The translations under genes and the position numbers were made by a program. A stretch of 60,177 nt of DNA, the filler included, from Ionaspis alba (Eukaryota): assembly GCA_964255285.1 (NCBI GenBank). It is 6 parts of 6 records of this genome, joined end to end, with 100 filler letters (N's around TTAATTAATTAA, not from the genome) between each part and the next. Parts side by side here need not be neighbours in the genome. Positions count along the whole stretch, not along the records: positions 30,255 to 40,208 come from CAXUUL010000639.1; 5 more parts are not named here. One strand, written 5' to 3'. The notes below the pieces were generated by a model. The model saw only the letters and a program-made list of their open reading frames with translations, was not told the DNA's origin and ran no database searches. Position 1 is the first letter of the stretch. Every line of letters starts with the position of its first letter. Shown one piece after another: positions 30,255 through 31,508 of this stretch.

Positions 30255-31508
30255 TCCGATTCCCTGATTGTTGTTTCCATCTCTTCCACTTGTTGGATCC
30301 AGTAACTCCAGATGAGCTTCCTCATTGAGGCGGTCTACAGTACTGTCTCCTTGAAAGACGTATTGCGTGGCACATTCGGAGCTTGGATTATTCTTATCAA
30401 GGCGCATGATATTTCGTTCTCCCAATTCCGTCCAGGAACTAAGATCCCTAATGGCCTGATCGTGGTTTTTGCAGATGTGACCGACCAATAAAGGCTTCGT
30501 ATTGATATGGCGTAAATGACGCGGCAGCCTTTTACCTTGGCGACAGGTCCAAACGACTTCTTTCCATTCGTCCCCCAATTGCAGAATATAAGGACTCAAG
30601 GCTGCTACCAGACTGTTTGGCACCTTCAACAGGACCAAGCACGGCACCGACATGACTGACCGGTGCTTCACAAAATCGTTATACCGGTCTGCGATTTCTT
30701 TCTGCAATGCGAAATACAGCATACAACCTTGTGAACCTCTGAAATCTGACGGCCAGCTGGACGCCAAGACTTCGATGCTGATTTCCCCGGTATTCGCGTC
30801 TATTGCACCTTTCGTTCTAGACCTGTCTATTCCTTTCCAAAGTGTAGTGTGCCCCGGGGTAAAATGAGTAAAAGACGGTACCGATTCCACGATTGGAGCA
30901 GGAGCAGGAGGAGCATAAGCAGCACCAGGTCTCCGCTGTGTCCTCACTCGTAGCAGCTCTCGCTGTCGCTCTCTACTGCGTTCTCCGAGTTCCTCGAGTG
31001 CGCGAAAGCGGAGTCCAACGGAATCGATAGCCCAGAACTTTGCAGACTCGGTGAGCCGGAGGTCGTGGTAATCGGGTGACATGATTTTTTCCTGCAATTC
31101 TGATGCCAATCCATAATTTTGGAGGCATTTTACCCAGTCGTGCGAGTCATTCAGAGCATCCTCTTCAATATCGCGAATATGGTACTCGGCAATGTCGAGA
31201 AATGAGTAAGGACCTTGAGGGGCTTTACCGTCGGAAGGAAACCTTTCCCATCTCTGCCAGAGTGAACTCGCAACTGCAGCGGTGAAACCTAGGAAAAGAT
31301 ACGTTTCACGGCTTATGAGGACTTCTGGAATGTCTATCTGACAATCAGAGCCATAGCCTGAATCATTGCTTGACGATGAGTAAGTGAAAATTGAAAGTAT
31401 GGTAGAACTTGATGCTTGTCTCATGCCGTTAGAAGCCTTGGTCAAAAGGCCACGAGAGACTAAGTCAATAGCATCTTCAGATTGGATGATAGTCTCGTAT
31501 GCCGCCAT
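30255..31508 (-). CDS. Hypothetical protein: helical N-terminal domain plus a DUF3990-like (ADP-ribosyltransferase fold) C-terminal domain. No stop before the contig end.
   Basis: Intronless ORF of at least 418 codons. Ordered motifs TLWKG, SDFRG..LYFALQKEIADRY, LVLLKVP, EWKEVVWTCR, LLVGHIC and TQYVF parallel the DUF3990 pattern (LYHG / DFG.GFY / EW..FV...R / iiGPia / Q..F). The ORF is solid; the domain call is by recall. Confidence 0.6.

Follow-up and report, generated by a model that had tools for sequence, protein, structure and literature searches.

We analyzed a gene for a two-domain protein in a 60,177-nucleotide stretch (hereafter, the window) of the genome assembly of Ionaspis alba (GCA_964255285.1). 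The locus, at 30255..31508 on the minus strand, is a real intronless ascomycete gene encoding a protein of approximately 420 residues. Its C-terminal domain (residues ~219-407) belongs to the DUF3990 branch of the ADP-ribosyltransferase (ART) superfamily, within which it has diverged strongly, and its N-terminal domain (~190 residues), an unknown module made up mostly of helices, is an almost constant partner of the ART domain. As the best joint explanation, we moderately favor a diverged ART of the DUF3990 branch that uses nicotinamide adenine dinucleotide (NAD+) and acts as an intracellular conflict or stress-response enzyme, not as a secreted toxin. The features on which this argument draws are as follows.

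30255..31508, minus strand: coding sequence of the two-domain protein (418 codons in the window; ATG at 31508-31506; no stop codon)
30936..31508, minus strand: N-terminal domain, residues 1-191, mostly helical (model and alignment)
30855..30935, minus strand: Pro/Ala-rich linker, residues 192-218 (low model confidence; predicted local distance difference test score, pLDDT, ~59-68)
30288..30854, minus strand: DUF3990-like ADP-ribosyltransferase-fold domain, residues 219-407 (profiles and model)
30834..30836, minus strand: codon of K225, at the position of the His in bacterial YHGS (family alignment)
30714..30716, minus strand: codon of Y265, in a YFT motif aligning with bacterial GFYxT (family alignment and hhalign)
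30363..30365, minus strand: codon of Q382, in a QYVF motif aligning with bacterial QIVF (family alignment and hhalign)

Coding frame

Open reading frames (ORFs) were called with ATG starts and the standard code. The sole long open frame within 30255-31508 runs on the minus strand from 31508 into the N block at 30254, with no stop codon before the joint at 30155-30254, where the 3' end of the coding sequence is cut artificially. The closest homologue, P0001 (419 aa), stops at the same alignment position as this frame, and conservation across the fungal family fades near residue 407; the missing C-terminal tail is therefore probably a few unconserved residues, judging from the aligned sequences. 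An intronless ORF had been claimed here in the initial annotation, and this was borne out, since full-length homologues can be aligned with the frame from one end to the other and no intron is needed. With 1240 relatives at E<=1e-3 and a confident AlphaFold2 model, the frame is more than chance.

Homology to DUF3990

The initial annotation had read the C-terminal part of the protein as DUF3990-like from a series of motifs, all of which were present in the stated order in the 418-aa translation: TLWKG (residues 222-226), SDFRG (254-258), LYF (264-266), A..RY (273-276), LVLLKVP (291-297), EWKEVVWTCR (314-323), LLVGHI (340-345), and TQYVF (381-385). The DUF3990 motif order that it had given agreed with the true order in 12 bacterial DUF3990 sequences. 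These came from a search in which the DUF3990 (PF13151) hidden Markov model (HMM) matched 16 of 401 sampled genomes (one phylum; 14 above the cut-off), and the 12 intact proteins were extracted as the target for profile-profile comparison.

Profile similarity to the ART clan, on which the initial annotation had staked its reading, was present. The fungal C-terminal domain (142 rows) aligned with the 12 bacterial DUF3990 proteins at an hhalign probability of 96.5% (E 9.5e-10, 128 columns), and the whole-length alignments gave 93% (E 3.5e-7, 141 columns); as a control, the fungal N-terminal domain gave a probability of 0.2% against the same target. Identity between the fungal and bacterial proteins was ~13-16% in these profile alignments. 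The bacterial motifs D-F-G...G-F-Y-x-T, Q-A..W-A, W..F-V..N-R, V-I-G, and Q-I-V-F were paired with the fungal motifs D-F-x-G...Y-F-T, V-A..Y-A, W-K..V-W..R, L-I-G, and Q-Y-V-F, respectively, and I-L-Y-H-G-S was paired with T-L-W-K-G only in an extended, lower-confidence alignment.

DUF3990 was the only Pfam family that recurred among the families listed for the homologues, with matches in 16 of 91 at E<=1. At tighter cut-offs, it matched 8 of 89 homologues at E<=0.01 and a further 3 of 60 at E<=0.001. All of these matches fell within the C-terminal domain and covered profile positions ~23-150 of 152, the best being that of P0022 (30.1 bits, E 4.4e-7). NCBIfam and PHROGs scans of the 91 homologues returned single chance-level matches only. 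DUF3990 belongs to the Pfam ART clan and is named among its families with eukaryotic members (PMC7955679). The suffix "-like" is the right word for the Ionaspis domain, since the protein lies below Pfam's DUF3990 cut-off. As far as sequence comparison goes, the protein descends from DUF3990-type ARTs and would work like them, yet by Pfam's threshold it is no member.

Predicted fold and structural neighbors

An AlphaFold2 model built from an alignment of 150 sequences had a mean pLDDT of 91.2 and a predicted template modeling score (pTM) of 0.89. In the C-terminal domain, strands were modeled at residues 220-228 (with K225), 263-267 (with Y265), 289-297, 340-344, 381-386 (with Q382), and 399-403. 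The initial annotation had also made its case depend on an ART fold, and residues ~205-411 of this confident model fall on solved ADP-ribosyltransferases. The top rows of a Foldseek search against the PDB were ParT (E 1.6e-3, probability 1.00), Xre-RES, VPA0770, PARP2, and the RhsP2 toxin domain, together with cholix toxin, PARP1, MbcT, and exotoxin A. VIA-align, which is independent of Foldseek, searched 48,161 chains and gave the following matches (rmsd, root-mean-square deviation).

ParT (6d0h): Z 7.5, 138 aligned, rmsd 3.5
RhsP2 toxin (7rt7): Z 7.5, 128 aligned, rmsd 4.5
NatRT: Z 6.8
Xre-RES (9r35): Z 6.7
VPA0770: Z 6.2
diphtheria toxin: Z 6.0
MbcT (6fkg): Z 5.8
PARP1, 2, 3, 4, tankyrase, exotoxin A, cholix, and TASOR pseudo-PARP: Z ~5

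By title, rows 1-25 (Z 4.8-7.5) were ADP-ribosylating or RES-type toxins, diphtheria- or exotoxin-A-like toxins, and PARP or pseudo-PARP domains. All of them lay on residues ~166-413, apart from row 10, PARP3, which lay on residues 33-406. The fold and the DUF3990 homology are established by these comparisons; the use of NAD and a role in conflict are inferred.

Active-site positions

A K-Y-Q triad had been proposed in place of H-Y-E/Q, and it held: K225, Y265, and Q382 align with the bacterial H, Y, and Q, and across the fungal family the triad reads K/R-Y-Q. Of 145 members, 80 have K, 52 have R, and 4 have H at position 225; Y265 is kept in 130 of 146, and Q382 in 135 of 140. Also conserved are D255 (141/147), F256 (139/147), W315 (131/141), R323 (134/143), and G343 (129/141), and the fungal domain has conserved basic residues at 225 (K/R), 231 (R/K), 281 (K/R), 283 (R/K), 316 (K/R), and 323 (R). 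In the 12 bacterial proteins, Y-H-G, D, G-F-Y, W, and R are invariant and Q is nearly so; the invariant YHG and GFY and the near-invariant Q make the bacterial triad H-Y-Q.

The K/R-Y-Q set of the fungal family is none of the classical ART triads (H/R - Y/S - E/Q/D). The bacterial DUF3990 profile found its best PDB sequence match in diphtheria toxin, with YHGS facing YHGT and GFYtT facing GFYST, at an E value of 0.12 that is only suggestive. The triad of diphtheria toxin is given as H, Y65, and E148, and in R-S-E enzymes the first-strand Arg is described as positioning NAD+ (both PMC8120803).

N-terminal domain

The initial annotation had the ART domain fused to a helical N-terminal domain of unknown kind, and this description stood, as the domain had no Pfam, Atlas, or convincing structural match. 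Its model is mostly helical with short strands and of high confidence, except in a Ser-rich loop at ~40-56; a long helix (156-191) closes the domain. The conserved residues are G74, W125, G133, R151, W159, and L171. No Pfam match at E<=10 and no usable ESM Atlas match were obtained, and the structural matches were weak and helical: the Rap1 C-terminus (Z 4.1), Atu2327 (Z 4.1), and OHCU decarboxylase (Z 3.5). The whole-chain pTM suggests that, in the model, the N-terminal domain packs on the ART domain at a fixed arrangement.

An origin of this domain from the partners of DUF3990 in bacterial gene cassettes was considered and rejected, with hhalign probabilities of 0.1% against DUF3791 (5), downstream small ORFs (6), and larger neighbors (5); the alignments were shallow.

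Size and spread of the fungal family

A word-indexed protein search with the Ionaspis protein alone returned one relative, at 28% identity. A profile built from these two sequences was searched against 1.84 billion cluster representatives and returned 1240 representative relatives at E<=1e-3, 803 at E<=1e-10, and 227 at E<=1e-30; the 1240 are clusters at 50% identity. The best 150 relatives made up the family alignment, from which the per-position residue counts are taken. Both domains were present in 131 of these 150, and the remaining 19 were short (198-384 aa). These single-domain relatives look like fragments, and none of them joined the N-terminal domain to another toxin domain. A search with the C-terminal domain of P0022 found no shorter split forms (6 candidates), which is weak evidence, and no longer fused form was found among 8000 scored candidates of 876-2500 aa with the family alignment as query, which is likewise weak evidence.

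Seven of 20 clusters that were looked up were named, all as "hypothetical protein" or "Uncharacterized protein". Three of the seven gave the lichen-forming ascomycetes Alyxoria varia, Varicellaria rhodocarpa, and Phylliscum demangeonii, one gave the tree Carpinus fangiana, and three named no organism. In the ESM Atlas, the Ionaspis protein lay beside eukaryote-only clusters in which Ascomycota was the commonest phylum (score 0.97) and beside a cluster in which Mucoromycota was the commonest and 20% of the members carried PF13151 (score 0.93). A search of the six-frame translation of the window with the family HMM found no paralogues elsewhere in it. In the literature searched, from which reviews available only as manuscripts were outside the scope, there was no description of a fungal DUF3990-like family and nothing on a fungal NLR coupled with an ADP-ribosyltransferase.

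For one relative, P0059 (430 aa), NCBI and UniRef give Carpinus fangiana as the source. Since the family is otherwise fungal, the plant assembly probably contains fungal DNA here.

Toxin and defense context of bacterial DUF3990 proteins

The bacterial DUF3990 proteins matched the PADLOC candidates PDC-M10A, PDC-M13A/B, and PDC-M42A, with E values down to 7e-75. Among the fungal homologues, 7 of 91 matched PDC-M13A and 6 of 91 matched PDC-M13B (best E 2.6e-7), and no other model was matched; the Ionaspis protein itself matched no PADLOC model. In the Rhs5 effector of Serratia, DUF3990 is the recognizable domain of the C-terminal region (PMC4524185), and a 2025 survey states that DUF3990 may take part in RHS-associated toxicity (PMC12165300). 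The bacterial genes stood in tight cassettes, often with 4-base overlaps, and their neighbors were DUF3791 (5 of 17 ORFs), other small ORFs, and helix-turn-helix (HTH) proteins. This layout looks like a toxin-antitoxin or defense module. Among the papers searched, nothing related was found on DUF3791, and PDC-M10, M13, and M42 were found only in a survey.

Individual loci showed the arrangement as follows. At the bacterial loci L123-L127, L130, and L139 (near positions 1250-2240 of each), the DUF3990 cassettes were compact and start and stop codons often overlapped. Upstream in these cassettes was a DUF3791 gene of ~72-85 aa or a DUF3791 fused to a longer N-terminus, and downstream was an unrelated ORF of ~73-87 aa. 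DUF3990 was paired with HTH-containing proteins at L129 and L137, and an HTH was fused to DUF3990 at L132.

Proposed mechanism and alternatives

For the Ionaspis protein as an active ART, we propose that NAD+ would be bound in the cleft between the two sheets of the C-terminal domain, with Y265 stacking on the nicotinamide and Q382 at the site that the catalytic Glu occupies in diphtheria toxin and the PARPs. Contacts with the ribose or diphosphate of NAD+ may be taken over by the conserved R323 together with the basic residue at 225, much as they are made by Arg in R-S-E and RES-type enzymes. The outcome would be either transfer of ADP-ribose onto a target (a protein, a nucleic acid, or a phosphate group) or cleavage of NAD+, and the N-terminal domain could serve as a built-in regulatory or target-recognition module packed on the ART domain. 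By analogy, the likeliest role would be that of an intracellular conflict or stress-response enzyme, because the bacterial relatives occur in Rhs tips and phage-defense candidates and the fungal proteins form a large family that diverges quickly. The initial annotation had also allowed for an effector; in the secreted sense this is disfavored, as a crude hydropathy window found a signal-peptide-like N-terminus in none of the 150 family members.

Several points weigh against this interpretation. The Ionaspis protein matched no Pfam family even at E<=10, and none of the homologues in the scans of 89 and 60 proteins reached the PF13151 gathering cut-off of 32.2 bits. VIA-align Z scores below 8 are middling by the tool's own scale, and, since the single scores (5-7.5) are middling, the case for the ART fold rests on the consistency of the matches. 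The bacterial His is matched with K225 in a low-confidence hhalign extension, although the model does have K225 in its first strand. The fungal family has lost the canonical His and has Gln instead of Glu at the third position. According to PMC8120803, replacement of this Glu in the classical toxins costs several hundred-fold activity. The literature search found no paper demonstrating an activity of DUF3990, and the genomic context in the window, with an F-box gene and ORFs without families, is uninformative.

Given the loss of the His, the Gln in place of Glu, and the activity cost of replacing Glu, the fungal protein could be a non-catalytic binder. It would then be a pseudo-enzyme that kept the ART fold and lost catalysis, as in TASOR pseudo-PARP, PARP13, and plant RCD1/SRO, and would act with its N-terminal domain as a binding or scaffold module, perhaps sensing NAD+, ADP-ribose, or a nucleotide. 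The triad His is replaced in 141 of 145 members, and TASOR pseudo-PARP (Z 5.1), PARP13 (4.4), RCD1 (5.1), and SRO1 (4.0) are among the structural matches. However, the cleft positions (225, D255, Y265, R323, and Q382) are among the most conserved of the family, which is more typical of a working site. The Gln is also near-invariant in bacterial DUF3990, which is used in toxin tips and defense candidates (PMC4524185), so that Gln alone does not mean inactivity; held in common with a bacterial family deployed as toxins, it argues by analogy for a working, maybe non-classical, site. We regard a pseudo-enzyme as the main rival reading, though a fairly unlikely one. Likeness by coincidence, with the C-terminal domain being an unrelated alpha/beta fold, would agree with the absence of any Pfam match to the Ionaspis protein, with the lack of a significant PDB sequence match for either this protein or the family profile, and with a Foldseek search of the PDB in which no row reached E<=0.001. 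It is close to refuted and in our estimate highly improbable, as three independent lines (the DUF3990 and PDC-M13 HMMs, the controlled profile-profile comparison, and the structure) agree on both the superfamily and the residues.

Within the favored interpretation of an active NAD+-using ART, a more specific form would be an enzyme directed at nucleic acids or phosphates and not a protein-modifying toxin, such as a RhsP2- or DarT-like RNA/DNA ART, a Tpt1-like phosphotransferase, or a RES-like NAD+ phosphorylase or NADase. ParT, RhsP2, NatRT, Xre-RES, VPA0770, and MbcT (Z 5.8-7.5) score slightly above diphtheria toxin and the PARPs, although the gaps to diphtheria toxin, of ~1-1.5 Z, amount to near ties. 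The domain carries many conserved basic residues (225, 231, 281, 283, 316, and 323), and Tpt1 is described as having an Arg-His-Arg-Arg set and not a catalytic Glu (PMC8120803). Among the families listed for them, however, neither the Ionaspis protein nor the 91 homologues matched Pfam RES, DarT, or PTS_2-RNA. We consider this sub-case a tentative possibility.

A broader reading is that ascomycetes, apparently lichen-forming ones, turned a bacterial DUF3990 toxin or defense ART into a large, self-restrained intracellular conflict or immune family, in which the N-terminal domain would restrain the enzyme until a trigger arrives and K/R-Y-Q would be a new ART catalytic class, aimed for example at nucleic acids or phosphates. 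As a whole, we hold this reading to be doubtful. The spread of ART domains into eukaryotes is already well known. DUF3990, an Rhs toxin tip that also occurs in three candidate phage-defense systems, is now tied to a fungal family of 1240 clusters beyond the reach of Pfam. This family is a natural experiment in which the fold and most of the cleft residues were kept while His became Lys or Arg beside Gln. If active, it would widen the known catalytic repertoire of ARTs and provide another instance of fungal cells reusing bacterial conflict machinery internally; if inactive, it would be a further conserved pseudo-ART. A model from the family alignment would let these proteins be annotated.

Neighboring sequence and make-up of the window

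The window is a composite of six pieces of ~10 kb that are possibly not genomic neighbors, with joints of the form N44-TTAATTAATTAA-N44; genes adjoining a linker are cut by the construction of the window. The features outside the coding sequence are as follows.

9993-10092, 20084-20183, 30155-30254, 40209-40308, and 50205-50304: five linkers (N44-TTAATTAATTAA-N44) between pieces
6047-6146, 44211-44310, 51871-51970, and 54088-54187: four plain runs of 100 N within pieces
31509..31927, no strand: intergenic 419 bp between the ART-like gene and a divergent F-box gene (ORF map)
31928-32647, plus strand: F-box ORF of 239 aa (N-terminal PF00646, E 1.3e-6), divergent and 419 bp upstream of the ART-like gene
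34294-35268, plus strand, in the piece that holds the ART-like gene: 324-aa ORF with no Pfam family at E<=1
37409-38521, plus strand, in the piece that holds the ART-like gene: 370-aa ORF with no Pfam family at E<=1
28381-29667, plus strand, in the preceding piece: 428-aa ORF with Pro/Gln repeats (PQPQ...)

The interval 31509-31927 is presumed to be a two-way promoter region. The C-terminal part of the 428-aa ORF at 28381-29667 weakly matches the double-stranded RNA-binding motif (PF00035, E 0.082, under the cut-off). In sequencing run X1, an exact contig and three others, 80-95% alike, lay on 30626-30834 in the ART core; the three non-exact contigs had 6-14 differences per 84-126 bases and then diverged. 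These near-copies may be paralogues or related strains in the sample.

Comparison with known systems

Diphtheria toxin and the PARPs have the same fold as the C-terminal domain (Z 6.0 for diphtheria toxin and ~5 for PARP1, 2, 3, 4, and tankyrase), and the PARPs too have a helical domain ahead of the ART domain. However, their triad is H-Y-E, whereas that of the fungal family is K/R-Y-Q, and the fungal N-terminal domain superposes unconvincingly on the helical domain of the PARPs (PARP3, 224 aligned, rmsd 6.8; PARP2 by Foldseek including the N-terminal domain, template modeling score 0.24-0.30, rmsd 15-19). No Pfam PARP match was obtained for the Ionaspis protein or among the families listed for 91 homologues.

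The RES-type toxins and RhsP2 superpose on residues ~218-409 (Z 5.8-7.5, 121-138 aligned, rmsd 3.4-4.5), although at a sequence identity of only 9-14%. RES and R-S-E enzymes have a basic residue instead of His in the first strand. Pfam RES had no match to the Ionaspis protein and was not among the 25/36 families listed for 91 homologues. ParT, Xre-RES, MbcT, and RhsP2 are neutralized by antitoxin or immunity proteins that are separate from them; the fungal protein, by contrast, is one chain that includes its own N-terminal domain. PDC-M13A/B, PDC-M10A, and PDC-M42A, whose models are of the DUF3990 type, are bacterial, multi-gene, candidate phage-defense systems.

The bacterial DUF3990 proteins differ from the fungal family in several respects. 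They are ~150-250 aa long and are without the ~190-residue N-terminal domain of the fungal proteins, and the His of their YHGS motif is invariant (12/12), whereas 132 of 145 fungal members have K or R there. In the fungal domain, ~25 inserted residues separate the first strand from the DF motif, and the bacterial G-x-x-A-D-D motif, in which A-D-D follows Gly, is absent. The two nevertheless have in common the order and positions of the motifs [LI]-[YW]-x-G, D-F-G...Y-x-T, A..[WY]A, W...R, G, and Q-[IY]-V-F. Gln is the third residue of the triad in bacterial and fungal proteins alike, and the DUF3990 residues kept in the Ionaspis protein are D255, F256, Y265, W315, R323, G343, and Q382.

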